Shown here: in pieces, positions 2 through 27,476 of the stretch
Layout: the number at the start of each line of letters is the position of its first letter
How positions within the stretch are numbered: position 1 is the stretch's first letter
Assembly: GCA_004321885.1 (NCBI GenBank)
Contig: SCQK01000015.1
Location: forward strand, 1 to 31,763
DNA: 31,763 bases
Direction of reading: 5' to 3'
Source of the DNA: Patescibacteria group bacterium
GTDB taxonomy: Bacteria > Patescibacteriota > Patescibacteriia > Magasanikbacterales > GWA2-37-8
The notes under the pieces: generated by a model
Seen by the model: only the letters and a program-made list of their open reading frames with translations
What the model was told of the DNA's origin: nothing
Database searches by the model: none
Program-made: the position numbers and the translations under genes

Positions 2-1600
2 ACCGAGGGCGGTAGCTGTGTCCAGCCCGGAAACCTGTGTCTGACAGGCCTTTCGTGCCTGTCCGGGTTCTGTGTGAAGCTCCCGCCCACCACCACGGAT
101 GGCGGGATCAAGATCGACGGCCCCAAGCCCGAGGCAGGAAAGACCCCCGGCACCGAGGGAGGCCTGTGCGTTCAGCCAGGCAATCTGTGCCTGTCGGGGC
201 TCAATTGCCTCTCGGGGTTCTGCGTGAAGCTCCCGGCCACGGCGGACAGCGGAGTCAAGACCGACACCGCCAAGACACCGGGGAGTGAGGGTGGGGCATG
301 TGTGAATGGCAATCAGTGCCTGTCTGGGCTGATCTGCCTGTCGCAGATCTGCGTCAAGGCGCCGTCCACGTGCAACACCGACGTGGATTGCAACGACAAC
401 AACGAGTGCACTGCTGACACGTGTGTGAACTTCGGCGGGACGTTCGGCAAGTTGTGTGTGACGTTCCCCGGAGACCCCTCGTGCCGACCATGCACCACGG
501 ACGCGGATTGCGGCGACAGCAACCCCGTCACGACCGACAAGTGCGTCGTCGCGAGCGGGAAGACCATGGGCAAGTGTCAGTACACGGCTTCCGGCGTGAC
601 GAAGTGCACGCCGGGCAACTCGCCCGTGGAGTGCGGCGACGGTATCGCCTGCACCACCGACAACTGCAATCAGGACGGGTCCTGCTCGCACACGTTTGGC
701 GCCAACTGCCCGTGCGCGAAGGACTCGGACTGTAATGATAAGAACTCTTGCACCAGCGACACCTGCAACACGGGGACCGGCAAGTGCGTCTTCACGCCTG
801 CCACGGGGTGCAAGGAGTGCATGAAGCTGGAGGACTGCGGCGGGGCTCTCTCCCGCGTGACTTCGCCCATTAGTTCGTCTGGCGCGGATTGCGCCGCGAA
901 CTCCTGCGTGAAGAACGTTGGGGACGTGGTGGGCAAGTGCGCCACCACGTTGCAGCCGGCGTGTGTGCCCTGCAACAGCCCCACCAACTGGCCCGCGTGT
1001 TCGTACTGGTCCTCGTGTTGGGTTTGCGACCCGACCGGAACCGGCAAGTACGAATGCGGGCCGGACCCAAAGGTGGCCGGGTGCCCGACTGGCCTGCCCT
1101 GGCCCCCGCCTGCCCAGCCCCCGACCCCGTTGTGCTCGTCCAATGCGGACTGCAAGGACTACGCGGGCGGCACGTGCGCGACTGGCGGGTTCTGCGTCTA
1201 CACGCTCGGCGGAGGCAACTCCGTCATCAGCGTGAAGGTGCCGGCCGCCGGCAAGGTGCACCTGTGGGTTGCCAACAAGGAGCTCACGGGTGTCGGGAGC
1301 GCGGGCACGATTCTCAACTTCCAGGTCTCAAGCGCAGACCTTTGCGCCTGGGGCTTTGATGTAAATATTGAAGACGGGTCCAACAAGTGGTGGGGTTGCG
1401 ACCTGCCCAGCCAGTCGAAGTCGAGCACCGACCTTCGGCTGGGTGGCGTGGGGAGCAACTCAAACCTCCTCTGCGTCGGCACGGCAGCCGCTTGCGGACC
1501 AAGCAAGTGCTACCTGTTGACCAGCGACCCGACCGCGTGTGGCGGCAAGGGCGGCGAGGGCAATATCAAGTGCCCCAAGACCGCTCTCGGCTGCCCGTAG
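2..1600 (+). CDS. 5'-truncated, secreted cysteine-rich repeat protein. The reading frame is open from the window edge, so the ATG at 74 is internal. About 150-nt near-identical tandem repeats lie at roughly 2-370, followed by several 'C-x-x-D-x-D-C-x-D-x-N-x-C-T-x-D-x-C' modules resembling Myxococcales-type Cys-rich (disulfide) repeats.
   Basis: The frame is continuous from nt 2 (TEGGSCVQPGNLCLTGLSCLSGFCVKLP...), and the same about 50-aa unit recurs three times at the DNA level. The sequence is very Cys-rich with regularly spaced Cys and Asp. GC is visibly much higher (about 60-65%) than in the rest of the window. The stop is at 1598-1600. Confidence 0.7.
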   Translation, partial: TEGGSCVQPGNLCLTGLSCLSGFCVKLPPTTTDGGIKIDGPKPEAGKTPGTEGGLCVQPGNLCLSGLNCLSGFCVKLPATADSGVKTDTAKTPGSEGGACVNGNQCLSGLICLSQICVKAPSTCNTDVDCNDNNECTADTCVNFGGTFGKLCVTFPGDPSCRPCTTDADCGDSNPVTTDKCVVASGKTMGKCQYTASGVTKCTPGNSPVECGDGIACTTDNCNQDGSCSHTFGANCPCAKDSDCNDKNSCTSDTCNTGTGKCVFTPATGCKECMKLEDCGGALSRVTSPISSSGADCAANSCVKNVGDVVGKCATTLQPACVPCNSPTNWPACSYWSSCWVCDPTGTGKYECGPDPKVAGCPTGLPWPPPAQPPTPLCSSNADCKDYAGGTCATGGFCVYTLGGGNSVISVKVPAAGKVHLWVANKELTGVGSAGTILNFQVSSADLCAWGFDVNIEDGSNKWWGCDLPSQSKSSTDLRLGGVGSNSNLLCVGTAAACGPSKCYLLTSDPTACGGKGGEGNIKCPKTALGCP

Positions 1601-4054: not shown

Positions 4055-5110
4055 ATGCGAATTTGCCATATTATTCCCAAATTGAGTTACGGCGGGGCCG
4101 AGCGGATGCTGGTGGATTTGATAAATAATTCCTCGCCAAATTTTGAACATTCGGTGATTGTTTTTTTTGATTACAATCCATTGGCCGCGGATTTGAAAGA
4201 GGGAACGTGTGTTGTTGTCGTGCCAAAAAAAGGCAAGTTGAGTTTGGGATTGGTTACCGATATTCGCGACGCGCTGAACGGCTTGAAGCCGGATATCGTG
4301 CACACGCATTTATTTGGCGGCGATTTGTGGGGCCGTTTGGCAGCCAAGCGGCTGGGCTTGCCGGTTGTTACAACCGAACACAATATCAATGTCAGCGAGG
4401 GTTGGTTGAAAAATGAATTACGGCATTGGTTGCGAAAAAAAAGTGATGCCTACGTTTCCTGCTCGGATTTTGTGCGCGGGTACATGGAGAAAAGATGCCA
4501 AATTAAAGGTGCGACAGTAATTAAAAATGGAATTGAATTGGAGCGATTTGTGCATGTTGAACAGAGAAGAATTGATCGCCCGATACAGCTTCTTGTTTTA
4601 GGTCGGCTCACGAAACAAAAAGGCCACGCCGTGGCTCTGCGAGCGCTGGCGAAATTGAAAAATATTGAGTGGCGTTTGAGTGTTTTGGGTGAGGGAGAGT
4701 TGGCAAGCGGTCTGCGAACAGAAGCGCGAGAGTTGGGAATAGGGGATAGGGTGGAATTTTTGCCGGCCACGCGCGAAATTTCCGGGGCGCTGGCGCAACA
4801 CGATATTTTGCTGATGCCGTCTTTGTGGGAAGGGCTGGGCGTGGCCGCGATGGAAGCCATGGCGGCCGGGCGGCTGGTGGTGGCATCAAGGGTGGGCGGG
4901 TTGCCGGAGTTAATTAAAGATGGGGAAACTGGATTATTGGCGCGACCAGGCGACGTGAACGACTGGGTTGAGAAATTGCGCTGGTGTTTTACGCATCCGG
5001 ATGATTGCGAACGTCTTGCCGCATCCGGTCGGGAGTACGCGCGAATGAATTTTGGCGTTGATAAAATGGTGAGAGAATATGAAAAAGTTTATCTGTCGCT
5101 TGCCAATTGA
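4055..5110 (+). CDS. Glycosyltransferase family 4 (GT-B fold).
   Basis: The N-terminus 'MRICHIIPKLSYGGAERMLVDL' is typical of GT4. An E-x7-E motif (EGLGVAAMEAMAAGRLVVASRVGGLPELI) is present. The gene starts 2 nt after the preceding stop. Confidence 0.8.
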   Translation: MRICHIIPKLSYGGAERMLVDLINNSSPNFEHSVIVFFDYNPLAADLKEGTCVVVVPKKGKLSLGLVTDIRDALNGLKPDIVHTHLFGGDLWGRLAAKRLGLPVVTTEHNINVSEGWLKNELRHWLRKKSDAYVSCSDFVRGYMEKRCQIKGATVIKNGIELERFVHVEQRRIDRPIQLLVLGRLTKQKGHAVALRALAKLKNIEWRLSVLGEGELASGLRTEARELGIGDRVEFLPATREISGALAQHDILLMPSLWEGLGVAAMEAMAAGRLVVASRVGGLPELIKDGETGLLARPGDVNDWVEKLRWCFTHPDDCERLAASGREYARMNFGVDKMVREYEKVYLSLAN

Positions 5111-6104
5111 CTGCGTGCTGGCGGTTACGTACAACTGCAACGCGCGGTGCGTGATGTGCGATATTTGGAAAATCAAAAATTTTTCCGAGCTGGCGCCTGA
5201 GCAATTTTTGAAACTGCCCGCCAGCTTGCGCGATGTGAATATCTCCGGCGGCGAGCCGTTTTTGCGGCGCGACTTGCCCCAGATAATTCACAATGTAAAA
5301 AAAGCGTGCCCGGCCGCGCGGCTCGTGATTTCCACAAACGGCTTCGCGACTGGTTTGATTCTGGCGCAGATGCGAAAAATTTTTGAAATAAAACCCAATA
5401 TCGGCATTGCGATTTCCATAGACGGAATAGGGGAGAAGCACGACGAGATGCGCGGCATACGGGGCGGGTTTAATATGGCCATGAAAACCCTTGAAGGGCT
5501 AAAGAGAATGGGCATGAAAAATTTGCGGCTGGGTTTTACGGTGACAGAGAGAAATATCAACGAGTTGGGGCGCGTGTATAATTTGGCGCGCAAAGAAGGC
5601 GTGGAGTTCACCAACAGCTTTGCCCAGAGTTCGGATATTTATTTTGGGGGGAAACAGAATACGGATTTTAAGGATATGGATTCCGGCTCGGGGGCCGGAA
5701 TGACAAAAGAGGTCCTACGCGCGCAATACCGACATCTTATCAGGGCCGAGCTTTCCGGTTGGAATATAAAGCGCTGGGCGCGCGCCTACTACGCGCATGG
5801 GATGTACAATTTTATCACCGGCAAGCAGGCCGAGCTTTCCAGCGCGCCCGGGCGCGACTTTTTCTTTTTGGACCCGTCGGGCGAAATTTATCCCTCGGTG
5901 GTGCATAATTTTAGGATGGGGAATATTCGGGCGGTTCAGGGGTTTGAACAATTTTGGTGTTCAAGCGCCAGCGAGGGTGTGCGGGAAAAAATAGACGCGG
6001 CCAAACTGCCGGTTTGGATGATATGCACCGCGCGCACAGCCATAAAAAAGCACCCCTTCAAAGTGGGGTGGTGGGTTTTGAAAAATAAATTCAGCGTCCG
6101 GTAA
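5079..6104 (+). CDS. Radical SAM domain protein.
   Basis: A CxxxCxxC cluster (CNARCVMCDIW) lies near the N-terminus, and a 'NISGGEPFLRRDL' SAM/Gly-rich motif is present. The 5' end overlaps the glycosyltransferase gene, suggesting an operon. Confidence 0.7.
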   Translation: MKKFICRLPIDCVLAVTYNCNARCVMCDIWKIKNFSELAPEQFLKLPASLRDVNISGGEPFLRRDLPQIIHNVKKACPAARLVISTNGFATGLILAQMRKIFEIKPNIGIAISIDGIGEKHDEMRGIRGGFNMAMKTLEGLKRMGMKNLRLGFTVTERNINELGRVYNLARKEGVEFTNSFAQSSDIYFGGKQNTDFKDMDSGSGAGMTKEVLRAQYRHLIRAELSGWNIKRWARAYYAHGMYNFITGKQAELSSAPGRDFFFLDPSGEIYPSVVHNFRMGNIRAVQGFEQFWCSSASEGVREKIDAAKLPVWMICTARTAIKKHPFKVGWWVLKNKFSVR

Positions 6105-6987
6105 CAAGGCAAACCACAGGCCCGCCAAATTCCCAGCCCGCGGACAGCGCCTGGCGCAGACCCGCCACAGACAAAGCGCTGTTGGCCGAGATTTCAATTC
6201 CGGTCGTTTGCTTGAATAGCTTGATGGCCGACAATATCTCGGCATTCGTCGCTATCCATCCGGAGCCGTTGCTTTTTTTAATGGCGTTTACAACCGCTTC
6301 TTTGCGCCTGGCGATTCTATCCACAATCGCGCCGGCCAAACTAACCTCATCTTTTTTGGCGCTGTCTGGCAGGGGCAAACGTTTGGCCTCGGCCGCCGAG
6401 GCGATAGGGTGGCAGGTGGATGTTTGCACGATATGTATTTGCGGGCAAGCGCCGATTTTTTTGAAGCCTTCGTACAGTCCCTGGGCCGCGGCGCCGCTGG
6501 AAGTGGGCACAAAAATAGCGGACAGATTTTTGACCGCGCTTAATTCCTTGGCCAATTCAAAATAGCCGCTGAGCGCCGAGTCGTCGGTGGACTGGCGCAA
6601 GAGTTTGGCAGTGCCGGCCTTGTCGGCCTGGAAGGCGGACTGGCGCGGATTTTTTACCTGGCGCAGTTCAATATTTGGGCCGGCTAAATCCGTCAGTATT
6701 TTCATTTTCGCCCTATCTATTTTTTCTCCGATAAAGATTTTTAATTTTATCGGTTGCGAGTTGTGATTTTTAATGTGATAAGCCGCGGCCAGCGCCGCGT
6801 TGCCCGACGAAGAAATCACAAAATCCAACCAGCCTTCTTTGGCGTGTTTCTCTATCATCAACGGAATAGAGCGTCCCTTGTGCGAGCCATAGGGGTGCAA
6901 GTCTTCACGTTTCAAGTAAAGCTCTGTTGGCAGTCCCAAGGCCTCTGCCAACCGGCTTGCCTTGATTTGCGGAGTGGGTCTTGTCAC
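6091..6987 (-). CDS. PLP-dependent enzyme, fold type II (threonine synthase / threonine dehydratase / cysteine synthase superfamily).
   Basis: An 'LKREDLHPYGSHKGR' motif (S-x-K-x-R PLP-lysine motif) and a Gly-rich loop 'VPTSSGAAAQG' are present. The protein is 298 aa. Confidence 0.55.
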   Translation of the reverse strand: MTRPTPQIKASRLAEALGLPTELYLKREDLHPYGSHKGRSIPLMIEKHAKEGWLDFVISSSGNAALAAAYHIKNHNSQPIKLKIFIGEKIDRAKMKILTDLAGPNIELRQVKNPRQSAFQADKAGTAKLLRQSTDDSALSGYFELAKELSAVKNLSAIFVPTSSGAAAQGLYEGFKKIGACPQIHIVQTSTCHPIASAAEAKRLPLPDSAKKDEVSLAGAIVDRIARRKEAVVNAIKKSNGSGWIATNAEILSAIKLFKQTTGIEISANSALSVAGLRQALSAGWEFGGPVVCLVTGR

Positions 6988-7009
6988 AGGTGGAAAAATA
7001 TTGTATAAT
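6981..7009 (+). promoter_or_regulatory. Near-consensus sigma70-type promoter (TTGTCA-17 nt-TATAAT) reading into the small zinc-ribbon gene.
   Basis: TTGTCA is at 6981-6986 and TATAAT at 7004-7009 with a 17-nt spacer. An AAGGGG Shine-Dalgarno-like element lies about 20 nt upstream of the ATG at 7044. Confidence 0.5.
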
Positions 7010-7043
7010 GCTTTTTATAAAAGGGGAATAACAGGCGATTTTT

Positions 7044-7208
7044 ATGAAACTAATTTGTCCGGAGTGCAAAAACGACGTGGATTTGACGGCCTATCCCAAT
7101 ATGGCCGCGGGCAATGTCATAGAGTGCAATGTTTGCGGGATTACCCTCATGGTGAAAGACATGGACGGGGAAAATGTTATTGTTGAGGTGGTTGACGAGG
7201 GGAAATAA
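7044..7208 (+). CDS. Small LysW-like zinc-ribbon protein (54 aa). It is shorter than the 60-aa cut-off and so absent from the ORF track.
   Basis: The translation is MKLICPECKNDVDLTAYPNMAAGNVIECNVCGITLMVKDMDGENVIVEVVDEGK. The CPEC...(17)...ECNVCG spacing and the 'L-V-D' acidic C-terminal half resemble the LysW/ArgW amino-group carrier fold. The canonical EDWGE C-terminal tail is absent, as the protein ends in -DEGK. Confidence 0.4.
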   Translation: MKLICPECKNDVDLTAYPNMAAGNVIECNVCGITLMVKDMDGENVIVEVVDEGK

Positions 7209-8727
7209 GCCTGTCAATCATTCCCCTAAACCCACGCGAGCCCAAAAAGACGATGGTGTCTTCTTTTTGGGCTGTCTTTTTTAAATAAGCGACCAGTGCG
7301 TCGTCGTCCGGCATGAATTTCGCGTTGTTGTGCGTTTTGGAAATAATTTTGGCCAGTTTGGCGCCATTCATAAGCTCGTTGGTTGTCTCCCCCTTGATAA
7401 GGGGGAGATTCACTACCACACCAAAATTTTTGGTGTGGTAGTGAAGAGGGGGTAATTTTAATTTCGTAAGCGCGGGAACAATTACTTCGTTGGCATTGGC
7501 AAAAGCGTGAGCGTACGATGGGGCCGAGGCCGCGCTCCGGCCGCCGGTATTGGGTTCAAATACCGCGTAGATTTTTCCCTTATAAATTTGGCGCAAAGTG
7601 GCGAGGGTTGACTTGGCTTTGGCCGGCGAGTGGGCGATGTCGTCGTAGACATCGGCGCCGCTTGCTTGTCCGCGTTTTTCCAGCCGCCGCTTCAAGCCGT
7701 CAAAAGTTTTAATAGCTGAGAGAATTTTTTCCGGCGCGATGCCGATTGCCGAGGCCAGCGCGAACACCCCGCACAAATTTTGCGCCATAAATTCGCCGAG
7801 CATGGGCGAGGAAACTTTATAAATTTTTTTCCCGTGTCGCAGTTCAAATTTTATGCCGCTGCCGCTCTGGCTAATTTTACCGTATTGGTAGTCGCATCGT
7901 TCAGCTTTGCCATACGTTATTGTCATTGCGAGGCCGTTTGCGGCCGAAGCAATCCCATACGTATTATTAGTAGGAGATTGTTTCGCTGCGCTCGCAATGA
8001 CACTTAAAACCTTCTCATCATCAGCGCACGCCACTATTAGTCCATGTTTTGGTATGGAAGCGATCAAATTTTCAAACGCGTCAAAATAGCTTTCTGCGGT
8101 GGGATAAATATCAGCGTGGTCCCAGCTGATGGAAGCGAGGAGCAGGTGAGTGGGGGAGTAGTGGGAAAATTTTGGTCGCGCATCCCAGCGGGCTGATTTG
8201 TACTCGTCGCCTTCTATCACGCTCCACCCCTCTTTTTTTCCGCTGGCTCCATAGTCCCCCGCAGGGGGCTGTGGAGCCAAACTGCCCATACTCGCCGATT
8301 CAAACCCGCTTATCGCCAGACCGCCGAACATGTAACTCGGCGCGAAATTGGCTTGCGTCAAAATCCACGAGAGCAAAGCCGCGATTGTCGTCTTGCCGCA
8401 GGTGCCGGCGCAGACGATGGAGTTTTGTTTCACGAAATATTCAGCCAATACCTCGGGATATGATTTGTATCTCAATTTTTTTTCCTGCGCCGCCAGCCAT
8501 TCAGGGTTTTGCGAACCGGCCACATTACCCACCACCACTAAATCCGGAGAGTCCATGCGCTCCGGATGCCAGCCCGGGTAAAATGCCACACCCGCAGATT
8601 TCAACCTCGTGGAAACCGGCGGGAAAAAGCCAACGTCACTGCCAGTCACTTTCCATCCGGCTTTCTTAAAAGCAACAGCAATCCCGCTCATTCCCACCCC
8701 GCAAATTCCGATAAAGTGAACATGCAT
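7177..8727 (-). CDS. Mur ligase of the MurC/Mpl family (UDP-N-acetylmuramate:L-alanine ligase or murein peptide ligase). It carries an in-frame GC-rich palindromic insert.
   Basis: The N-terminus 'HFIGICGVGMSGIAVAFKKAGWKVTGSD...YPPVST' is MurC/Mpl-like, with the YPPxST pattern resembling Mpl. Mur ligase middle and C-terminal domains follow. Nucleotides 7386-7456 encode 'KLPPLHYHTKNFGVVVNLPLIKGE' from a palindromic element. Confidence 0.8.
   Translation of the reverse strand: MHVHFIGICGVGMSGIAVAFKKAGWKVTGSDVGFFPPVSTRLKSAGVAFYPGWHPERMDSPDLVVVGNVAGSQNPEWLAAQEKKLRYKSYPEVLAEYFVKQNSIVCAGTCGKTTIAALLSWILTQANFAPSYMFGGLAISGFESASMGSLAPQPPAGDYGASGKKEGWSVIEGDEYKSARWDARPKFSHYSPTHLLLASISWDHADIYPTAESYFDAFENLIASIPKHGLIVACADDEKVLSVIASAAKQSPTNNTYGIASAANGLAMTITYGKAERCDYQYGKISQSGSGIKFELRHGKKIYKVSSPMLGEFMAQNLCGVFALASAIGIAPEKILSAIKTFDGLKRRLEKRGQASGADVYDDIAHSPAKAKSTLATLRQIYKGKIYAVFEPNTGGRSAASAPSYAHAFANANEVIVPALTKLKLPPLHYHTKNFGVVVNLPLIKGETTNELMNGAKLAKIISKTHNNAKFMPDDDALVAYLKKTAQKEDTIVFLGSRGFRGMIDRLISPRQPPQQ
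7920..8000. repeat. A 12-bp perfect inverted repeat 'tgtcattgcgag / ctcgcaatgaca' with a 57-nt spacer inside the Mur-ligase gene. The 'gtcattgcga(g)' half-site recurs at about 13332 and 28598.
   Basis: The arms are at 7920-7931 and 7989-8000, and the spacer contains the small hairpin ggccgtttgcggcc. The same 10-11-mer is seen in the intergenic region at 13332-13343 and at the annotated start of the 28597 ORF. Confidence 0.5.
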
Positions 8728-8745: not shown

Positions 8746-9498
8746 CTATTGTTTTAGTATCTTCTTTAGCTCCTCCAAATTCCTCTTCCACTCCTTCCCG
8801 TCAAACCATTCCAGTCCATTAAACTGTAATTTATAGACATCGGCCGGGCGCTGGGCCGAGCCGATATACACGTATTTTTTTCCCTCCACCTTCGCGTGCA
8901 AAATCGCTTTTTGCATCATGCCCAGGCCCAGGTCTTTTTGTTTGGATTCAAGGTCGTAAAAAGGATAGCTGTAATGCAAGATATTTTTTGTTTCAAAACA
9001 AATGCAGTAGCCCAATACCCCCTCCCCCGTCCTCCCCCTAAGAGGGAGAGGACTACCAGCGGTATTTCCTTCCCCTTTTAGGGGAGGGGCAGGCCACCAC
9101 ACCAAAGATTTTGGTGTGGTGGCAGGGGGTGGGGTATAAATCAATAACAAATTAAAGTTGCTTTTTGCCGGGTCAGTCAGCATCTCTTTTATTTTTTGTG
9201 CGGAGAAAATTTTCGGTCCAAATTTTTTTTCGTAAAAATCCTTGCCCATCTTGTGCACGCGCCAGTCATAATCAGAGTAGGGGAGAGGGGCCGCGTCCAG
9301 TTCAAAATTTTTCGTATGGCTCAAAATGCGCCGGTTCTCGCTGTTTAGAATAAATTTGCCCAAATCAATGCGCACACTGCGCGTTTGATTCATATCGCCT
9401 TTGCCCGTGCGCGTAAAAACAAAACCCTCACTGTAAAGTTTTTCTACATTTTCATCCGCGAAATCAGAAATTGTTTTCTTGTTCCAAGATAGATACAT
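8746..9498 (-). CDS. ATE/Bpt-family (arginyl-/leucyl-tRNA-protein transferase-like, ATE_C domain) aminoacyl transferase. It carries a large in-frame palindromic-element insert.
   Basis: An 'GFVFTRTGKG...MNQTRSVRIDLGKF' segment resembles the ATE 'GWRRSG...QT..IR...F' region. The C-terminus 'YSYPFYDLESKQKDLGLGMMQKAILHAKVEGKKYVYIGSAQ' matches the ATE_C pattern Y-x-FYD-[PL]...SLG...I..AK..G..Y.Y[IL]G. Nucleotides 9010-9135 encode a Pro/Gly-rich 'TPPPATTPKSLVWWPAPPLKGEGNTAGSPLPLRGRTGEG' stretch. Confidence 0.55.
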   Translation of the reverse strand: MYLSWNKKTISDFADENVEKLYSEGFVFTRTGKGDMNQTRSVRIDLGKFILNSENRRILSHTKNFELDAAPLPYSDYDWRVHKMGKDFYEKKFGPKIFSAQKIKEMLTDPAKSNFNLLLIYTPPPATTPKSLVWWPAPPLKGEGNTAGSPLPLRGRTGEGVLGYCICFETKNILHYSYPFYDLESKQKDLGLGMMQKAILHAKVEGKKYVYIGSAQRPADVYKLQFNGLEWFDGKEWKRNLEELKKILKQ

Positions 9499-9534: not shown

Positions 9535-10656
9535 TTAGTTCATTGATATCCAGACAGCCAAAATGACCATAAACGCGTGCATCAGCCAAAAGCGCATCAC
9601 GATTTTTTCCTCGCTCCAGCCCTTGAATTCAAAATGGTGATGAACCGGCGCCATCTTGAACAGCCGCCGTCCCAGCAAGCGCCTAAAACACACCTGCAAA
9701 ATTACCGATACAATTTCCACGTAAAAAATAAATCCAAGCAGGGGAATGAGCAGGGTGCGGTTTATGGCAATGCCGTTTATGGCCACCAGGGCCCCCAGCC
9801 CCAGCGCGCCCACGTCGCCCATCTGAAAACGCGCCGGTTTTACGTTGAAATAAGTATAAGCAATCAAAGCGCCGGCCACCGTGCCGTTTAGGAGTGTAAA
9901 CGATTCGCGTCCGGCTGTCCAGCTCATTACCATCAGGCCCAAAAAGGTGATAATCATGGCGCCGCCGGCCAGACCGTCCAGCCCGTCGGCGATGTTGACC
10001 GCGTTGGCCGTAAACATCACCGCAAAAATCACCAGCGGAATAATCCACCAGCCGATTGGTATCTGCCCCAGCACCGGGGTCCAGATGGAATGCCAGTGCT
10101 CGCCCAGCTTGTAATAAATCCACCAGGCCGGAATGGCGCCGGCTACAAATTGAAAGAGTAGTTTTTCGTGCACCTGGATGCCGCGCCCCGGATGCGAGCC
10201 AAAGGCGGAAACAGCGCGTTTGTAAAAAGCCCAAGGCAAACTTAAAACATACCAAACCCGCGTCCGCCAAAATTTGTGCACCCGTATCAAAGTAAGCGTC
10301 TGTTTCAAAGTGCGCTCCCGCCGTGGCTTGCCGAAAATATTCAGCAAATCATCGGCCGCGCCCAGAAGCGCCGACACGGCCATGGCGCCGATGGGCACAT
10401 AGGTGCTTTCGCGGTTCCAATTCCAAATCAGCGTGATAATCGTAACCGTGGCTATCACCAGCAGTCCGCCCATTATCGGCGTGCCGGCTTTGCATCCGCG
10501 GTCGCCTTTCATTGTAAAATCAAATTCAGCGCGGCGCGTTATTTTATACTTGTACAAAAATTTCGTCAGCAAAGGCGCCCAAATAAACGCGCCCAGCGCC
10601 GAGAATATTAAGTAAAGCAAGGCTGTTTGTATTAAGTCTGGTGAAAACATATTCAC
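9535..10656 (-). CDS. mraY: Phospho-N-acetylmuramoyl-pentapeptide transferase MraY.
   Basis: An 'NAVNIADGLDGLAGG' motif and the 'APVHHHFEFKGWSEEKIV' motif are present, and the protein is a multi-TM. The start as listed is GTG at 10654-10656; an ATG lies 2 codons downstream (10648-10650). Confidence 0.9.
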   Translation of the reverse strand: MNMFSPDLIQTALLYLIFSALGAFIWAPLLTKFLYKYKITRRAEFDFTMKGDRGCKAGTPIMGGLLVIATVTIITLIWNWNRESTYVPIGAMAVSALLGAADDLLNIFGKPRRERTLKQTLTLIRVHKFWRTRVWYVLSLPWAFYKRAVSAFGSHPGRGIQVHEKLLFQFVAGAIPAWWIYYKLGEHWHSIWTPVLGQIPIGWWIIPLVIFAVMFTANAVNIADGLDGLAGGAMIITFLGLMVMSWTAGRESFTLLNGTVAGALIAYTYFNVKPARFQMGDVGALGLGALVAINGIAINRTLLIPLLGFIFYVEIVSVILQVCFRRLLGRRLFKMAPVHHHFEFKGWSEEKIVMRFWLMHAFMVILAVWISMN

Positions 10657-10724: not shown

Positions 10725-11564
10725 TTAAAATTTTAGCCGTCTGATTTCCAAAGTTTTCGCTTGCTTGGCTTCCAAAAACGTTTCGTTGGCTTCGCCCGTT
10801 TTGCCCAACTCAACCCACTCCTGCCCCAGCAATCCGGCTTTTGGATTCACGAGCCGGATAAATCCTTCGCTCACCCCGTGCCCGTATTTACCCTCACAGC
10901 CCCAGGCGCGGGCGCAGCCGTATCTAATAAACCCGCCGTCCGTTTCGGTAATAATCAAAATATGGTTGCGGTCGCGCCGCTGACCGGTGCGCAACATCAC
11001 AATCACGTCTCCGGCGCGCGCGTTTTCCAGCTTCACTTTTTCCGTATTCTCGTCGCTCGCGTAGGTACTCACGGAAATATTTTCCATTGGCCGCAATTTG
11101 GCGACAAGCCAGCGCCAAAAACGCGCCGGCGAAACCACGCGCAATCGCTTCAGCAAATTCACGTTTTTCGTTTCCAAAAAATGTTGCGCCAGCACGCGCG
11201 TGACAAAGCCCGAACAGTCCACGCCCAGCCCGTTATCAATCAAAAATTTGCGGATATCGCGCGCGACCTCTTCGCCGGCGCCGTGCTGCTCACCACCGCC
11301 GCCAGGCGGGGCCCCGCTCTGGCGGTGGTGCAAACAACAGCCCTCGTGGTCAAAGAGCTGTTTGTGGTATTGCAAAGAAATAATCTGCGCCTCTTCCGCG
11401 ATATCGCGCGGCGAACCCTTGCCAACAAGCACAGACAGCTGGCCGCGCCGGCCCCGGCGCGCGTTGTTAAAATACGGACAGCGCACATTGCCCGCGCCGC
11501 GAAAAGGCAGAGACAAATAATCATTTATGGTTCTTAGCGCCGACGGCGATAGGGTGTTTGGCAT
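10725..11564 (-). CDS. NlpC/P60-family (papain-like) putative cell-wall hydrolase or amidase with an in-frame GC-rich insert.
   Basis: A 'GVDCSGFV' catalytic-Cys motif is present, and a downstream 'GDVIVM....RNHILII' segment matches the NlpC/P60 'GDLVFF...HVGIY' pattern. Nucleotides 11291-11330 (a C-type palindrome) encode 'GAPPGGGGEQHGAG'. Confidence 0.5.
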   Translation of the reverse strand: MPNTLSPSALRTINDYLSLPFRGAGNVRCPYFNNARRGRRGQLSVLVGKGSPRDIAEEAQIISLQYHKQLFDHEGCCLHHRQSGAPPGGGGEQHGAGEEVARDIRKFLIDNGLGVDCSGFVTRVLAQHFLETKNVNLLKRLRVVSPARFWRWLVAKLRPMENISVSTYASDENTEKVKLENARAGDVIVMLRTGQRRDRNHILIITETDGGFIRYGCARAWGCEGKYGHGVSEGFIRLVNPKAGLLGQEWVELGKTGEANETFLEAKQAKTLEIRRLKF

Positions 11565-11580
11565 AATGTCATTCCCCCGA

Positions 11581-13338
11581 CTAAGTACGGGGGAATCCAG
11601 TACTTATTCGTTTAATCAATTTCGCCTTCAAAGTTTCCGGCAATAGATGAGTCTGCCCCAGTTTCTCCACTTCCACCCATTCCAATTGGTAGGAATTATT
11701 CGGATTATTGCGCGCCTGCTCGGGCCCGCCCAAAAATTCTTTGCCGGAAATATTTTTACCGAAAAAATAATGCTCTCGGCGCGGCGAGGCAATGGCGATA
11801 ATTTTTTTGCTTTCGTCAATTTCAAAATCCAAATTCGTCTCCTCTTTGGTTTCGCGCATGGCCGTGACGCGAAAATTTTCATTCGGCTCCACGGTGCCGC
11901 CGGGCATGGCAAAGTATTCATTGCCGTACTTGTTGCGCTTCATCAGCAAAATTTTGTCGTCTTTAATTAAAATCACGCCGGCGCGCGGCCGGTTCCAAAT
12001 CATATTTTTATGCGCTGAAATAATACCCACTAAAATAGACATCCCGACCTCGTTGAAAATGTTGTGTTTTTCCATCAACCCGCTCTCGCTTTGCACGCGA
12101 ATCAGGTCCGTGCCTAGTTTTACATTCTGGTACATTATGATATTAAAACTTTGCACGGCCTTGATTCTGGGTATTTCCAGTTCGTCTATGTTCAAAGTGA
12201 CCCTCTGCACGATTTGCGCGCCGTTTGTGATGGCCTGCAGGCGGTAGTCGTCCGGCGGCACGTCCAAAAGCGCGGCTACGTGCGCCTGAAAAGTGGTGGC
12301 GGCCGGCCGCGGCTTCATCAGTCCGCCCAGCCGTTTTTTGGGCGCGGCCTTGGCCATGGCCAACTCCTGCAACTGGGATTCAAAACTGGCCGAGGCCGGC
12401 TGGCGCGCGTTTACTTCCACCAGATACACTTGTCCGCCGGCTTCGTCTATCACCGCGTCTATGCCATAAAGCCCCTTCCATCCCTGGCTGGCCAGCCGTT
12501 CGCCTACTTCAATGGCTATTTTTTTGTACTGGGCCGCCTGTTCTTCGGTCAAAATTTTGCGCGGCATAGACCAGTCGTTGCCGATAGTGGCAAAGGGCAT
12601 GTCGGTAAAAGGCTTCAGGCCAGTGATTTGATAGCTGATGTTGCCGACAAACACCCTGTTTCCCCAGACCACGTTGTTGTTGGTAAAAAGCGGCCCCTTG
12701 ATGTACTCGGTTACGCGCACGTCGCGCCGCGGAAATTTTTCCCGTATCTCCTGCAGTTGTTTTTTGGATTCCACTAAAATTGTGCCCAGGCCCGTGTGCG
12801 AGCGGTTGAACTGCACGATAAACGGCTTGCCTTTCCACACCAGGTTGGCGCACAAGTCTATGCGGTGGGAAGGCAAGTGCGATGCCAATGGCCCCAGCCA
12901 ACGCACCTGGGAAATTTTTTCCTCCACTTCGTTGCAAAATTTGGCGCTCGGGTTGAGCAGGGCCCAGCCGTGGTCCGCGCAGAGCTCTTCTATATATATA
13001 TTGTTCTTAAACACCAAAACAAAGTCGCCTTTTTTGAGCAGAGACAAAGTTTTTTTGCGCGTCAGCAGTTCGCGCGTATCCAGCGGCCGCGGGTTGTCTA
13101 TCAAGATGATATTTTTGAAGCGCTTGGCCAGCTTGGACGAGTAGGAATTTTTGTTGGTGATGATATATATGCCGGGCTGGTGAAAATCCAGACCCTCGGC
13201 GCGCTCCACATCGCGGCAAACATAAAACAAACGCCGGCCAACGAGCTTGTTCGCGACTTCTTTGATAATATTTGATAACGGCATAGATTTAGTATATACT
13301 ACCTCAAAATTACCTGTGGCGCAATATCTGTTAGTCAT
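11581..13338 (-). CDS. Fusion protein with an N-terminal ATP-grasp ligase domain and a C-terminal NUDIX hydrolase domain.
   Basis: The ATP-grasp signature 'GLYGIDAVIDEAGGQVYLVEVNARQPASAS' (E-x-N) is present. The Nudix box 'PGGTVEPNENFRVTAMRETKEETNL' (GX5EX7REUXEEXGU) is in the last about 150 aa. A single uninterrupted 585-aa ORF encodes both domains. Confidence 0.7.
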   Translation of the reverse strand: MTNRYCATGNFEVVYTKSMPLSNIIKEVANKLVGRRLFYVCRDVERAEGLDFHQPGIYIITNKNSYSSKLAKRFKNIILIDNPRPLDTRELLTRKKTLSLLKKGDFVLVFKNNIYIEELCADHGWALLNPSAKFCNEVEEKISQVRWLGPLASHLPSHRIDLCANLVWKGKPFIVQFNRSHTGLGTILVESKKQLQEIREKFPRRDVRVTEYIKGPLFTNNNVVWGNRVFVGNISYQITGLKPFTDMPFATIGNDWSMPRKILTEEQAAQYKKIAIEVGERLASQGWKGLYGIDAVIDEAGGQVYLVEVNARQPASASFESQLQELAMAKAAPKKRLGGLMKPRPAATTFQAHVAALLDVPPDDYRLQAITNGAQIVQRVTLNIDELEIPRIKAVQSFNIIMYQNVKLGTDLIRVQSESGLMEKHNIFNEVGMSILVGIISAHKNMIWNRPRAGVILIKDDKILLMKRNKYGNEYFAMPGGTVEPNENFRVTAMRETKEETNLDFEIDESKKIIAIASPRREHYFFGKNISGKEFLGGPEQARNNPNNSYQLEWVEVEKLGQTHLLPETLKAKLIKRISTGFPRT

Positions 13339-13423: not shown

Positions 13424-14023
13424 ATGAAAAACGAAATAAAAGAAATAGAAAAAGACTTAGAATTTGTAAAAAATATTTATATAAAACTTCTAACGATATT
13501 GCCCAGTTTTAATATTACTGATAGCAAAATTTTGCCTTATGGCTTAAAAGCGCACACTAGATCGGTAAGTTGGTTAGTTGAGCAAGTTATTACACAGCAA
13601 ACTAAATTCAATGCAAAGAAACTTGATTTAGATGAAGTTAATTTTGACTTCCCAGATACCTCACTACATGATTGCGAAATTATTTATAAAGGGAGAAGTT
13701 ATTTTATAAATGTTAAAATTCACAATATTGGAAGCAAAGAAAATAAAAATGATATTTCTGCGGTAGAAAAACTTTATTTTCAATACAGTGTTAATAAAAA
13801 TTATACCTTAATATATGCTTGCTTTGGCATTAAATTTGAAAATATAAAAATAAATTTTGTTAAAGATTATTTAGAAGTTTTCTCGCCACAGTTTCTACCA
13901 ATTTATGTGAATCCTCGAAATGACAAAATTCAAGCCACCTATAGACATGATAAAGTATACAGAACGCGAGATGAATTTCTAAAAATGTTAAAAGAAAAAT
14001 CAAAAAGTATTATTTTAAAATAG
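13424..14023 (+). CDS. Putative type II restriction endonuclease, the R subunit of an AT-rich R-M islet.
   Basis: The 199-aa ORF has extremely low GC (about 20%). It lies 2 nt upstream of, and is co-oriented with, a beta-class DNA methyltransferase. No recognisable family motif was found, which is typical for REases. The assignment is by context. Confidence 0.45.
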   Translation: MKNEIKEIEKDLEFVKNIYIKLLTILPSFNITDSKILPYGLKAHTRSVSWLVEQVITQQTKFNAKKLDLDEVNFDFPDTSLHDCEIIYKGRSYFINVKIHNIGSKENKNDISAVEKLYFQYSVNKNYTLIYACFGIKFENIKINFVKDYLEVFSPQFLPIYVNPRNDKIQATYRHDKVYRTRDEFLKMLKEKSKSIILK

Positions 14024-14025
14024 CT

Positions 14026-14847
14026 ATGAATAAAATTTTTAACGAAGATATTTTATTAGGAATAGATAAAATAGAAGACAATTCTATTGATTTAATTTTA
14101 ACTGATCCTCCTTATTGTTTAGGCAAAGATTATGGCAATGATTCTGATCAAAAATCATCTGAGGATTATCTGAACTGGACATATCAATGGATTGATGCGG
14201 TTTTGCCTAAATTAAAAAATAGTGGAAGTTTTTATATTTTTTTAAGCTGGCAATATTCACCAGAAATTTTTTGTTATTTAAAAAAGAAATTACGAATGGT
14301 CAATGAAATTATTTGGGATAGACGAGTGCCAAGCATGGGCGGTTCTACTAGAAAATTTTCATCTGTCCACGACAATATAGGTTTTTTTGTAAAAAATAAT
14401 AATTATTATTTTGATTTAGATAGCATTAGAATTCCCTACGATGAAGAAACTAAAAAAGCAAGAACTCGATCAATTTTTGTTGGAAAAAAATGGTTAGAAA
14501 TGGGCTACAATCCAAAAGATTTATGGAGTACACCAAGAATACACACACAAGACCCTGAAAGAGAAAATCACCCAACCCAAAAACCTTTAGAAATAATTGA
14601 ACGAATGGTAAAAGCAAGTTGTCCTAAAAACGGAATTGTTTTTGATCCATTCATGGGAACCGGAACAACTGCTATCGCTTGCCTATCAAGCAATAGGCAA
14701 TATGTAGGATTTGAAATAAATAAAGATTATCACAAACTAATAACAAATCGAATCAAGAAACATAATAGTTGCCCGACTTTATTTCAACAACAGAAGCAAA
14801 AACAAGGTAATTTGACTCAAGGCATTCACCTATGCACGATAAATTGA
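14026..14847 (+). CDS. DNA methyltransferase, beta-class amino-MTase (N4-cytosine or N6-adenine), type II R-M system M subunit.
   Basis: An N-terminal 'DLILTDPPYCLG' (motif IV, DPPY) precedes a C-terminal 'HPTQKPLEIIERMV...VFDPFMGTGTTAIA' (motif I/SAM binding), giving the circularly permuted beta-class order. The composition is AT-rich. Confidence 0.85.
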   Translation: MNKIFNEDILLGIDKIEDNSIDLILTDPPYCLGKDYGNDSDQKSSEDYLNWTYQWIDAVLPKLKNSGSFYIFLSWQYSPEIFCYLKKKLRMVNEIIWDRRVPSMGGSTRKFSSVHDNIGFFVKNNNYYFDLDSIRIPYDEETKKARTRSIFVGKKWLEMGYNPKDLWSTPRIHTQDPERENHPTQKPLEIIERMVKASCPKNGIVFDPFMGTGTTAIACLSSNRQYVGFEINKDYHKLITNRIKKHNSCPTLFQQQKQKQGNLTQGIHLCTIN

Positions 14848-15758
14848 AACAATTCGGCCGCGTGAAAATCAACGAGCCGCTGGCCAAACATAATACATTT
14901 AGAATCGGCGGCCGGGCCAAGTTTCTTGTCATTGTGGATGACACGAACAAGCTCGTCGGCCTGCTTAATTTTTTGTCCGGGGCCGGAGAAAAATATTTTA
15001 TCGTGGGAGGCGGGTCCAATCTGCTGTTTTCCGACGATGAATTTGACGGGGTTATAATAAAAGTGCAAACATCCAAAATAGCGATAAAGGAAACCATGAT
15101 AGAAGCCGAGGCCGGGGTTTTGCTGTCCTTAGCCGTGAACATGGCCGCGCAAAACAGATTGGCTGGTCTGGAGTGGGGAGTGGGCATACCGGGCACTGTG
15201 GGCGGAGCCGTGCGCGGCAATGCCGGCGCCATGGGCGAGGATATGTCGTGCGTGCTTGACAGCGCGGATGTCTGGAGCGACGGTGAAATTTTGACCTTGA
15301 AAAAAAAAGAGTGCGGCTTTGGCTATCGCGACAGCGCGTTCAAAGCCGGCGGCGTGGTTTTACGCGCGCGTTTGGCTTTGCGCCGCGGCGACAAACAAGA
15401 AATCGCGGCCAAAATGGCGAAAAACGCGGCCCAGCGCGCCAGCCGCATCTCGCGCTTTGCCTCGGCCGGCAGTTTTTTCAAGAACATCAAGACCGAATTG
15501 TGGAAGCACGAAAAAACCGAAATGGATGAAATTTTTCATAAGCGCGGCAAGGTGCCGGCCGGCTGGCTGATAGAACAGGCCGGCTGTGCCAGGCTGGTTA
15601 GGGGCGGGGCGCGCGTTTCCGACGAGCACGCCAACATTATCGTGAATACCGGCGAGGCGACCGCCAAAGATGTTTTGGATTTAGTTGCTGAAATAAAAGA
15701 GAGCGTGTATAATAAATTTGGGGTGGAGTTGGAGGAAGAGGTGGAGATAGTGAGATAA
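14832..15758 (+). CDS. murB: UDP-N-acetylenolpyruvoylglucosamine reductase MurB.
   Basis: Motifs 'NTFRIGGRAKF', 'IVGGGSNLL' and the C-terminal 'SDEHANIIVNTGEATAKDVLDL' are characteristic MurB motifs. The start overlaps the methyltransferase stop by 16 nt. Confidence 0.85.
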   Translation: MHDKLKQFGRVKINEPLAKHNTFRIGGRAKFLVIVDDTNKLVGLLNFLSGAGEKYFIVGGGSNLLFSDDEFDGVIIKVQTSKIAIKETMIEAEAGVLLSLAVNMAAQNRLAGLEWGVGIPGTVGGAVRGNAGAMGEDMSCVLDSADVWSDGEILTLKKKECGFGYRDSAFKAGGVVLRARLALRRGDKQEIAAKMAKNAAQRASRISRFASAGSFFKNIKTELWKHEKTEMDEIFHKRGKVPAGWLIEQAGCARLVRGGARVSDEHANIIVNTGEATAKDVLDLVAEIKESVYNKFGVELEEEVEIVR

Positions 15759-20337: not shown

Positions 20338-21171
20338 TTGTCGGGTATGTCAAAAATTTTGGAAAATATTAAGCAGCGACCATATTTTTCGAAGAACAAT
20401 TTTGTCCTGTACAGGGACAACTGTTTAAATATTCTGGGAAAATTACCAGAGAATTCGGTTGACATGATTTTTGCAGATCCTCCTTATTTGCTTTCGAACG
20501 GCGGAATGACGTGCAATGGGGGGAAAATGGTAAGCGTTGATAAAGGGCAGTGGGATGTGAGTAACGGTTTAAAAAAGGACTGGGAATTTCATTTGAGCTG
20601 GATTAAAGCGTGTCATCGAGTATTAAAGCCATGCGGAACAATTTGGATAAGTGGGACCTATCACTCCATTTATCAATGCGGATTCGCTTTGCAGGTCAAC
20701 AAATTTCATATTTTGAATGATATTGCCTGGTTCAAACCGAATGCGTCTCCAAATTTGAGTTGTCGATTTTTTACTGCTAGCCACGAAACGATTATTTGGG
20801 CTCGGAAAGATAAAAAAGGAAAACACAAATTTAATTATGAGCTAATGAAAAACAGAGACTGGACGGGTGATTTTATAAAAAAACCGAATCTTCAAATGCG
20901 AAGTGTTTGGGCTATTTATCCTCCCAAAAAAGAAGAAAAGATTTTTGGTAAGCACCCCACTCAAAAACCGATAGATTTATTGGTTAGGATTATCCTCGCA
21001 AGCACAGATAAGGGCGACATTGTTTTGGACCCATTTACCGGCTCTTCAACTTCAGGGCTGGCGGCATTTTTGAATGAAAGAAAATTCGTTGGTATTGATT
21101 TGGAAAAAAAATATCTAGATATATCCATTAAACGTTTCAGCAGTTTTAAAAAAGAAGCCCCTCATTTATGA
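20338..21171 (+). CDS. Orphan beta-class DNA amino-methyltransferase (N6-adenine or N4-cytosine).
   Basis: An 'DMIFADPPYLL' (DPPY) motif is N-terminal, and 'HPTQKPIDLLVRIILAST..GDIVLDPFTGSSTSG' is C-terminal. The islet is low-GC (about one-third). No intact REase ORF is adjacent. Confidence 0.85.
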   Translation: MSGMSKILENIKQRPYFSKNNFVLYRDNCLNILGKLPENSVDMIFADPPYLLSNGGMTCNGGKMVSVDKGQWDVSNGLKKDWEFHLSWIKACHRVLKPCGTIWISGTYHSIYQCGFALQVNKFHILNDIAWFKPNASPNLSCRFFTASHETIIWARKDKKGKHKFNYELMKNRDWTGDFIKKPNLQMRSVWAIYPPKKEEKIFGKHPTQKPIDLLVRIILASTDKGDIVLDPFTGSSTSGLAAFLNERKFVGIDLEKKYLDISIKRFSSFKKEAPHL

Positions 21172-27092: not shown

Positions 27093-27476
27093 ATGCGGCC
27101 ATCATCGGGTTTGGGAACACTGGAGCGAAAAATAATGGAAACAATCTGGGACGCCGGCGACTCGGCATCGGTGCGCGCTGTTTTTGATTGCCTGAAAACG
27201 AAAAAAAAGATTTGCTATACCACGGTGATGACTATAATGACCCGCTTGTGCGAAAAAAACATGCTTAGGCGCGCCATGGGCGAAGACGGCGCGTATATTT
27301 ACAGCGCCGCGCAAAGCAAAAAAGATTTTTTGAGATCGGTGTTTAAGCGCACCGTGGGCGCCCTGGTGGGGCAATTCGGCGAGCTGGCCGTGGCCCAGTT
27401 TATAGACGCGGTGGAATCCAGCAACCTGAAAAACTTAAAAGAGTGGCGCGAGAAATTGAAGAAGATTCTGAAATAA
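27093..27476 (+). CDS. BlaI/MecI/CopY-family winged-helix transcriptional repressor.
   Basis: An 'LGTLERKIMETIWDAGDSASVRAVFDCL....YTTVMTIMTRLCEKNMLRR' segment matches the Penicillinase_R fold. The protein is 127 aa. An M56-peptidase gene lies immediately downstream. Confidence 0.8.
   Translation: MRPSSGLGTLERKIMETIWDAGDSASVRAVFDCLKTKKKICYTTVMTIMTRLCEKNMLRRAMGEDGAYIYSAAQSKKDFLRSVFKRTVGALVGQFGELAVAQFIDAVESSNLKNLKEWREKLKKILK

Follow-up and report, generated by a model that had tools for sequence, protein, structure and literature searches.

Proteins of the LysW/ArgW type carry two hallmarks, a set of zinc-binding cysteines (four or three, arranged CxxC...CxxC) and a C-terminal EDWGE motif, whose terminal Glu accepts the substrate and which the LysX/ArgX ATP-grasp ligase reads with its GSWGR motif; all members of this fold that have been characterised are covalent carriers (PMC10433800). 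Relevant here as well is the MetO-MetM-Mec-MoeZ thiocarboxylate system, in which MetM is a ThrC-like enzyme (GapMind 2026 preprint, 10.1101/2024.10.14.618325). We describe a 54-residue zinc-ribbon protein encoded on contig SCQK01000015.1 (assembly GCA_004321885.1) of a Patescibacteria group bacterium assigned to the Magasanikbacterales; the window analysed is the whole stretch of 31,763 nt. The protein is predicted to have the LysW fold and ends in an invariant Glu-x-Lys in place of EDWGE, and its gene travels with genes for a ThrC-like pyridoxal-phosphate (PLP) enzyme, an ATP-grasp ligase and an NlpC/P60-like protein amid genes of cell-wall precursor synthesis. We consider it about an even bet that the protein is a LysW-type carrier or scaffold that acts through this unusual terminus.

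The gene, referred to below as the small gene, is the following.

7044..7208, forward strand: small gene, 54-aa four-Cys zinc-ribbon protein with the predicted LysW fold and C-terminal -DEGK (hidden Markov model matches, fold, conservation)

This open reading frame (ORF) comprises 54 codons from an ATG start to a TAA stop, and its translation is exactly MKLICPECKNDVDLTAYPNMAAGNVIECNVCGITLMVKDMDGENVIVEVVDEGK, the sequence that a first-pass annotation of the same DNA had quoted for it. A word-indexed search of 5.8 billion proteins returned 160 relatives, nearly all of 53–55 aa and from Patescibacteria, chiefly Magasanikbacteria. When one genome per GTDB species was scanned, 270 were found to encode a relative; 80 of these loci were fetched and are called the close loci hereafter. 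An intact, ATG-initiated ORF of 53–55 codons is present in all 80, each a distinct species genome. Pairwise nonsynonymous differences (pN, 0.24) lie well below synonymous ones (pS, 0.75, which is saturated), giving pN/pS of ∼0.32; the three codon positions have variabilities of 0.22, 0.12 and 0.45, highest at the third, and the other five reading frames are full of stops. Because the ORF is intact in 80/80 loci, with low pN/pS, third-position variability and stop-filled alternative frames, we conclude that it is coding and under purifying selection: this is a real and strongly conserved gene. The first-pass annotation had asked whether the ORF and its C-terminus are conserved in related genomes and whether a dN/dS check marks it as coding, and on both counts the call holds. 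When the family profile was run exhaustively with HMMER over 1.84 billion representatives, no more than 88 related clusters emerged, and a wider family of 53–60-aa zinc ribbons ending in -EEEK, -EEGK, -QEEK or -EEDK came to light. Metagenome scans for extra -EEEK loci gained 0 and 2. The family is highly conserved across phyla.

As to what the protein resembles, the comparisons converge on LysW. Its best Pfam match is Zn_ribbon_LysW (PF21344; E=5.9e-6), at 26.3 bits against a gathering score of 27 that lies just above, and most relatives carry a precomputed match to the same model. The best NCBIfam matches are likewise LysW/ArgW carrier models (NF041070 carrier_LysW_Arch, E=5.4e-6), although their cut-offs are missed by far (26.3 vs 75 bits for NF041070, 18.5 vs 53.2 for TIGR01206 lysW). 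When the family profile was compared with all PDB sequences, only the Thermus and Thermococcus LysW proteins fell below E=0.01 (3wwl and 5k2m, E∼0.005). An AlphaFold2 model built from a 36-sequence alignment (predicted local distance difference test score, pLDDT, 91.1) has a zinc knuckle and, after it, a beta-hairpin (residues 34–41 and 44–51), and is folded along its whole length; with this predicted model as the query, the first five Foldseek ranks in the PDB are all LysW (3wwl, 3wwn_B, 5eio_C, 5k2m_E/F), with template modelling (TM) scores of 0.65–0.75, root-mean-square deviations of 1.3–4.1 Å over 50–54 of 54 columns, and 26–30% identity. Every aligned relative of two subfamilies (36/36 and 20/20) keeps the zinc-site cysteines C5, C8, C28 and C31, and the net charge of about −6 is acidic like that of LysW. 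Since LysW is the best match by sequence model, by PDB profile and by fold, the small protein is, as modelled, a LysW homologue at the level of fold or domain.

Homology of the domain does not extend to orthology, and by its sequence the small protein would not be placed among the LysW/ArgW orthologues. None of the 31.7-kb window's Pfam-annotated ORFs encodes a RimK/LysX protein, an amino-acid kinase, a semialdehyde dehydrogenase, a class-III aminotransferase or an M20 hydrolase, nor were LysX/Z/Y/J/K genes found in 11 annotated related loci. The C-terminus reads -VDEGK, with neither EDWGE nor a terminal Glu, as the first-pass annotation had already remarked. This ending is not peculiar to one genome: E52, G53 and K54 are invariant in 36 close relatives, and in a set of 292 small relatives 284 end in Lys and 275 fit [DEQ]-E-[GEDNQ]-K (DEGK in 162, EEEK in 100). 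EDWGE occurs in 0/292, and a terminal Glu in a single relative (P0312, -DVDE). Outside the zinc site, the residues that never vary in either subfamily are N10, E27, E52 and K54. With E52 and K54 invariant across both subfamilies and a Lys end in 284/292, the pattern argues that Glu-x-Lys-COOH is a signature of the family in its own right and not a decayed EDWGE. The first-pass annotation had left the protein as either a divergent carrier or just a zinc ribbon; its coding status and LysW fold bear this out in part, and what the annotation overlooked is -DEGK as an invariant family signature and the constant PLP-enzyme partner described below.

Public databases name the relatives variously as 'hypothetical', 'sulfonate ABC transporter', 'ribosomal protein S27E', 'L37AE/L43A', 'RpoP', 'Elf1' or 'LysW' (e.g., P0053, P0338, P0341), names that look like annotation errors spread among small zinc-ribbon proteins. 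The family signature CPECxN...EC..CG...E-x-K-COOH, beside a gene with a PALP domain (the Pfam domain of the PLP enzyme), would mend their annotation.

The neighbours of the small gene in the window are these.

6091..6987, reverse strand: ThrC-like fold-type-II PLP enzyme (PALP, 298 aa; PF00291, E=6e-37), divergent partner of the small gene
7177..8727, reverse strand: MurC/Mpl-like Mur ligase of 516 aa with three Mur ligase domains, convergent with the small gene
8746..9498, reverse strand: ATE_C-like (arginyl/aminoacyl-tRNA-protein-transferase-like) protein of 250 aa; weak ATE_C and arginyltransferase matches
9535..10656, reverse strand: MraY-type phospho-MurNAc-pentapeptide transferase (TIGR00445, 186.7 bits, cut-off 192)
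10725..11564, reverse strand: NlpC/P60-like papain-fold cysteine amidase/peptidase of 279 aa, with a GxDCSG Cys and a conserved His
11581..13338, reverse strand: ATP-grasp_3 amide ligase (residues 1 to ∼440) with a C-terminal NUDIX domain (Pfam and NCBIfam matches)
14832..15758, forward strand: MurB (UDP-N-acetylenolpyruvoylglucosamine reductase; MurB_C and FAD_binding_4), end of the syntenic cell-wall block

The most constant of these associations is with the PLP enzyme, whose gene diverges from the small gene with start codons 56 nt apart. In 79/80 close loci a homologue is the next gene upstream and is transcribed divergently; in the one exception the sequence reaches only 235 nt upstream. 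The other genes are syntenic in the following numbers of the same 80 loci: MurC-like 74, ATE-like 65, MraY 64, NlpC-like 52, ATP-grasp 51 and MurB 36, with many of the absences due to contig ends. We also gathered distant loci, those of -EEEK members whose small protein shares 33–49% identity, from Dojkabacteria, Nomurabacteria, Spechtbacteria and further lineages (11 loci with DNA). Here the PLP enzyme is found in 11/11, the ATP-grasp gene in 10/11, the NlpC-like gene in 9/11 and MraY in 5/11; the PLP gene adjoins the small gene in ten, and in the eleventh it lies ∼2 kb downstream in the same operon. One further distant place, for which only gene order was available, has the identical arrangement. 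In the usual distant order an operon PALP–ATP-grasp–NlpC-like–(MraY) diverges from the small gene, so that the ATP-grasp gene adjoins the PLP gene directly beside the small gene. The ATP-grasp gene that the first-pass annotation had noted 4 kb away (it is at ∼4.4 kb) is thus tied to the small gene by these other lineages, and in the window's own lineage the ATP-grasp/NlpC/MraY block appears, from gene order, to have changed sides relative to the small gene. The cluster is dcw-like, with MraY, MurB, MurC, MurG/FtsW and FemAB. We take the small gene, the PLP enzyme, the ATP-grasp ligase and the NlpC-like protein to be a conserved functional module of Patescibacteria.

Variant loci add to this picture. 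In L092 (7001-14174) the genes form one co-directional operon in the order small gene, ATE_C-like, Mur ligase, PALP, DUF4185, ATP-grasp and NlpC-like. ATP-grasp and NlpC-like genes are adjacent wherever both were found, and in three loci they form uninterrupted ORFs, all on the reverse strand, with the ATP-grasp part N-terminal and the NlpC/P60-like part C-terminal (L007:9309-11330, L041:14988-16871, L012:18511-20148). Another fusion, L018:10172-12211 on the reverse strand, joins an ATE_C-like protein (residues 1–216) to a MurC/Mpl-like ligase (217–678), which implies that these two proteins act together. Three peculiarities of single loci may be recorded: the DUF4185 protein of the L092 operon is an extra one of 661 aa; L008 has a separate 183-aa ORF between the small gene and MurC; and in a Spechtbacteria locus (L084:3117-4253, reverse strand) no ATP-grasp gene is nearby, and the Mur ligase is followed by a DUF1611 protein that may stand in for the ligase function.

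Of the partner enzymes, the PLP enzyme (model pLDDT 90.9) has short threonine synthases as its best folds (TM 0.83, ∼23% identity), followed by serine dehydratases, threonine deaminases, Ser/Asp racemases and SbnA, and its model contains a low-confidence loop at residues ∼200–229. It keeps the Schiff-base lysine, its SHK aligning with SFK of ThrC and K37 being invariant; we had entertained the idea that the enzyme lacks a catalytic lysine and that Lys54 of the small protein supplies it, and this retained lysine led us to reject it. The Mur ligase scores almost equally with TIGR01082 murC (248 bits) and TIGR01081 mpl (246 bits), both below cut-off. Among 20 members of the ATP-grasp family, 19 match Pfam ATP-grasp_3 and all match NCBIfam PRK06524; the NUDIX domain of the window's protein (residues ∼449–564) marks a minority form, as most homologues are of 400–420 aa and have none. 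The NlpC-like family, with an invariant Cys in G-x-D-C-S-G (C117), an invariant H201 and conserved His residues, has Pfam matches that are all weak (NLPC_P60 13/21, CHAP 3/21) and fits a papain-fold amidase or peptidase. Profiles of the ATP-grasp and NlpC-like families found nothing significant among PDB sequences (best E 0.014 and 0.55), and the same search with the ATE-like protein gave nothing significant either.

We favour, with a probability of roughly 0.5, the reading that the small protein is a LysW-type carrier or scaffold acting via its C-terminal Glu-x-Lys. The zinc-binding, acidic protein would be the dedicated protein partner of the PLP enzyme, ATP-grasp and NlpC/P60-like set amid peptidoglycan-precursor genes, serving as a covalent carrier or a scaffold through the protruding Glu52-x-Lys54-COOH. 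Covalent attachment is something we infer, chiefly because a covalent carrier is the only known function of the LysW fold. In the loading step the ATP-grasp enzyme would form an amide between the terminus and an amino-acid or peptide intermediate, and the acceptor could be the carboxylate of Glu52 or of Lys54, or the epsilon-amine of Lys54. The PLP enzyme might then make or alter the tethered compound by beta/gamma-replacement or racemisation, or use it as the nucleophile in a beta/gamma-replacement, after which the NlpC/P60-like amidase would free the product. Such a logic of loading and unloading is proposed because an amide-forming ligase and an amide-cleaving hydrolase co-occur and are sometimes fused, much as LysX and LysK serve LysW. 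Given that MraY, MurC/Mpl-like, ATE/Fem-like and MurB genes are constant neighbours, the product would probably feed the peptide of the peptidoglycan. A fuller version of this scheme, in which Patescibacteria possess a new carrier class with the LysW fold, a Glu-x-Lys acceptor, loading by ATP-grasp_3, processing by a ThrC-like enzyme and unloading by an NlpC/P60-like enzyme for a peptidoglycan amino-acid or peptide building block, is one we hold tentatively and regard as possible but doubtful in its entirety.

Several observations weigh against the carrier reading. The protein ends in Lys, where LysW ends in the accepting Glu. LysW has a long flexible arm, whereas in the model of the small protein the free tail is limited to the last ∼3–4 residues; the first-pass annotation had noted an acidic C-terminal half, and the acidity stands, yet this half is predicted to be a structured beta-hairpin and not a floppy tail. 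The ligase is not of the LysX/RimK type, as RimK models match only 1–2 of 20 ATP-grasp members (rimK_fam 2/20) and a GSWGR-like motif is found in 0/20; it resembles wall-peptide ligases instead, with the pseudomurein ATP-grasp model ('Ddl_archaea') matching 14/20 and Ddl 5/20, so the enzymes could perform ordinary wall chemistry with no carrier at all. In none of the 88 HMMER representatives is the zinc ribbon fused to a partner. Fold-type-II PLP enzymes require substrates whose alpha-amino group is free, and we know of no amino-group-carrier pathway that uses one.

The first alternative is that the protein is a non-covalent subunit or chaperone of the ThrC-like PLP enzyme (or of the ATP-grasp enzyme), binding through its globular domain and Glu-x-Lys with nothing attached. 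The tight pairing with the PLP gene (79/80 and 11/11 loci) is what one would expect of such a protein, as are the very short tail and rigid C-terminal hairpin of the model, and the low-confidence loop of the PLP enzyme could be one that a partner puts in order. The invariance of the small protein is, however, concentrated on its last three residues, the co-occurrence and occasional fusion of a ligase/amidase pair speak against it, and the characterised members of the fold are all covalent carriers (PMC10433800). Obligate subunits also often fuse with their enzymes, and none of the 88 representatives joins the zinc ribbon to the PLP enzyme. We regard a plain subunit as unlikely, if well worth keeping in mind. 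An idea that we dropped along the way, that of ThrC-like enzymes with a fused LysW-type zinc ribbon, found 0/88 representatives with a PALP fusion, and the 120 nearest PALP homologues are single-domain.

Alternatively, one could envision that the partners are ordinary cell-wall enzymes (a Ddl-like dipeptide or side-chain ligase, a racemase or synthase, and a peptidoglycan peptidase) and that the small protein is an unrelated or regulatory neighbour, for example a zinc-ribbon factor controlling the divergent operon. The dcw-like setting with MraY, MurB, MurC, MurG/FtsW and FemAB would then need no further explanation, the ATP-grasp likeness to pseudomurein and Ddl models would be taken at face value, fold-type-II racemases are indeed among the structural neighbours of the PLP enzyme, and a small gene divergent from an operon is the classic arrangement of a regulator. 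However, a 54-aa protein that is negatively charged overall (−6) and lacks a basic surface is an unlikely DNA binder; its best matches are LysW and not regulators; in L092 it heads the same operon instead of diverging from it; and the invariant E-x-K-COOH end would be left unexplained. We therefore judge this explanation improbable.

A scheme with non-homologous parts analogous to CysO/CysM or MetO/MetM would make the small protein a sulfur carrier: the ATP-grasp enzyme would activate the C-terminal alpha-carboxylate to an acyl phosphate on the way to a thiocarboxylate, the ThrC-like enzyme would condense this with O-phosphoserine or O-phosphohomoserine, and after an S-to-N acyl shift the NlpC/P60-like peptidase would clip off Cys, homocysteine or a thioether diamino acid. 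Its attraction is that all four components of the module receive a role, that the PLP enzyme is closest to threonine synthases, and that a scheme of four parts, in which MetM (itself ThrC-like) works with a small carrier, a hydrolase and an activating enzyme, is already established (10.1101/2024.10.14.618325). Known sulfur carriers, however, are beta-grasp proteins with a Gly-Gly end, not zinc ribbons ending in E-x-K, the cluster contains no E1-like or rhodanese gene, and the constant cell-wall context would go unexplained. Counting further against it, we know of no precedent for an ATP-grasp enzyme that makes a protein thiocarboxylate, and we rate this scheme as more improbable still.

Identity as a canonical LysW/ArgW amino-group carrier for lysine or arginine biosynthesis, to which the equal length of 54 aa, the same fold, the four-Cys site, the acidity and the label 'lysine biosynthesis protein LysW' given to relatives by some sources might tempt one, is refuted as far as sequence can show and has at most a very slight chance, given the lack of EDWGE and a terminal Glu, scores far below the NCBIfam cut-offs, a partner ATP-grasp enzyme with no GSWGR, and no LysX/Z/Y/J/K in the window or the related loci examined. 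The LysW/ArgW parallel drawn in the first-pass annotation held for the fold and the best matches and failed for the pathway; in the Pfam search that it had proposed, the LysW model is the best match at a score just short of the gathering threshold.

Putative signals flank the small gene.

6981..7009, forward strand: sigma-70-type promoter of the small gene, TTGTCA-17-TATAAT (consensus match, positional recurrence in relatives)
7239..7283, forward strand: terminator-like hairpin with two 12-nt arms, then UGUCUUUUUU (TGTCTTTTTT in a second listing) (minimum-free-energy structure, z = −2.3)

The near-perfect promoter that had been proposed for the gene stands: TTGTCA (6981-6986) and TATAAT (7004-7009), separated by 17 nt, agree with 11/12 positions of the sigma-70 consensus, with the −35 hexamer reaching into the first codons of the divergent PLP-enzyme gene. 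Upstream regions of relatives show a promoter-like hexamer pair with a 17-nt spacer that ends ∼27–49 nt before the ATG, the best score reaching at least 10/12 in 30/81 of them vs 2/81 when shuffled. The AAGGGG at 7021-7026, by contrast, had been taken for a Shine-Dalgarno-like element, a candidate that we reject; because its end is 17 nt upstream of the ATG, too far away, and because a GGAG/AGGA-type motif occurs in the 20 nt before the start in 0/25 relatives listed, it is not a credible ribosome-binding site. At the other end, the small ORF shares its last 32 nt with the 3′ end of the convergent Mur ligase ORF, just as the first-pass annotation had described, and a convergent overlap of the same kind (20–56 nt) is seen again in 16/74 related loci. 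The hairpin starts 31 nt past the stop codon, within the 3′ coding end of the MurC-like gene, and its outer 11 pairs, GCCCAAAAAGA/UCUUUUUGGGC (second listing: GCCCAAAAAGA/TCTTTTTGGGC), are perfectly complementary. It looks like an intrinsic terminator of the small gene, although a consensus terminator scan, whose loop and stem definitions are possibly narrower, did not report it. On the reverse strand, ATTGTA (7000-7005) reads TACAAT, overlaps TATAAT (7004-7009) and lies 12 nt upstream of the GTG of the PLP gene at 6987; two divergent promoters may accordingly lie back to back, their −10 boxes overlapping, which would leave the PLP-enzyme mRNA nearly leaderless, and a promoter scan found no reverse-strand promoter at 7000-7009.

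Elsewhere in the window, the start of a radical SAM ORF (5079-6104, forward strand) shares 32 nt with a glycosyltransferase ORF (4055-5110, forward strand), and its end shares 14 nt with the PLP-enzyme ORF (6091-6987, reverse strand); because a homologue of the radical SAM ORF is syntenic in only 5/80 related loci, we place it outside the module. Two N6_N4-type DNA methylase genes (14026-14847 and 20338-21171, both forward strand; E=4e-58 and 2e-55) are present, with no restriction enzyme recognised near them; a 199-aa ORF just upstream of the first (13424-14023) has no Pfam match, and a PIF1-like helicase gene occupies 18580-20211 on the forward strand. A BlaI/MecI-type repressor gene (Penicillinase_R, 27093-27476, forward strand) followed by a gene for a BlaR1-like M56 peptidase sensor (27501-28529, forward strand) forms a putative beta-lactam-type sensing pair in a Patescibacteria genome. 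The sole match of a 508-aa ORF at 74-1600 (forward strand) is a weak one to the Dictyostelium Cys-rich repeat PF00526 (25.8 bits, below cut-off).

The family extends over at least 270 species genomes, hundreds of sequence clusters and many Patescibacteria lineages, and represents a second large branch of the LysW fold, with another invariant terminus and a wholly different enzyme set inside a cell-wall precursor cluster, in organisms whose metabolism is minimal and largely unexplored. To our knowledge, LysW-type carriers are known only from lysine and arginine biosynthesis and from a small number of natural-product pathways in actinobacteria and Serratia, every one of them with EDWGE or a terminal Glu and with LysX-type ligases. 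We found no account of the family or the module in the literature on Patescibacteria with LysW, on Patescibacteria peptidoglycan and Ddl, in a graspetide survey or in pseudomurein pangenomics. If the protein is a covalent carrier, the amino-group-carrier principle reaches new chemistry, and this may explain how ultra-small bacteria obtain a wall component; should the new carrier class be real, bacterial cell-wall precursor synthesis would include a carrier-protein step with chemistry and enzymes unlike those of the known amino-group-carrier pathways.

Among known systems, graspetide precursors were considered and set aside: a leader, a variable core and a RimK-like ligase would be expected of them, while the small protein is conserved and predicted to be folded, and its ATP-grasp enzyme is of another type. 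The graspetide loci of candidate phyla radiation (CPR) bacteria have other partners, namely TPR proteins, 'cluster 23' proteins and metallopeptidases (PMC8939145). Pseudomurein cluster A of Methanobacteriales and Methanopyrales also places an atypical ATP-grasp gene beside MraY-like and Mur-ligase genes, and the NCBIfam model of a putative pseudomurein biosynthesis ATP-grasp matches 14/20 of our ATP-grasp family, but these matches are weak (best E=1.9e-11, below cut-off) and the paper describing it mentions no LysW-like, zinc or PLP component (PMC11915815). The CysO-CysM-Mec and MetO-MetM-Mec-MoeZ systems share the general plan of a small carrier used via its C-terminus, a fold-type-II PLP enzyme, an activating enzyme and a hydrolase (10.1101/2024.10.14.618325). 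They differ in nearly every part, since their carriers are beta-grasp proteins with a GG end whereas ours is a zinc ribbon with an E-x-K end, E1-like MoeZ stands where the ATP-grasp enzyme stands here, JAMM-type Mec stands where the NlpC/P60-like protein does, and no sulfur-transfer genes were seen in our cluster. Glutathionylspermidine synthetase/amidase combines an ATP-grasp-type synthetase and a CHAP/NlpC-P60-type amidase in one protein that acts on a small-molecule substrate. Like our ligase/amidase pair, it couples an amide-forming ATP-grasp domain with a papain-fold amidase that reverses the bond, although its domain order is the reverse of that in the ATP-grasp–NlpC fusions and the likeness drawn here is one of domain types.

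The closest comparison remains that with LysW/ArgW of Thermus, Sulfolobus, Thermococcus and haloarchaea and with the amino-group carrier proteins of Streptomyces and Serratia. Both families have ∼54 aa, an N-terminal four-Cys zinc ribbon followed by a beta-hairpin, a strongly acidic character, functional residues conserved at the extreme C-terminus, and a genomic tie to an ATP-grasp ligase and a releasing hydrolase. Where LysW has -EDWGE with a terminal Glu at the end of a long arm, however, the small protein has -[DE]-E-[GE]-K with a terminal Lys on a free tail of ∼3–4 residues; its ligase is ATP-grasp_3/PRK06524-like with no GSWGR and not LysX; a fold-type-II PLP enzyme and an NlpC/P60-like amidase replace LysZ/Y/J/K; and its genes lie in a cell-wall context in Patescibacteria, whereas those of LysW/ArgW belong to amino-acid biosynthesis.

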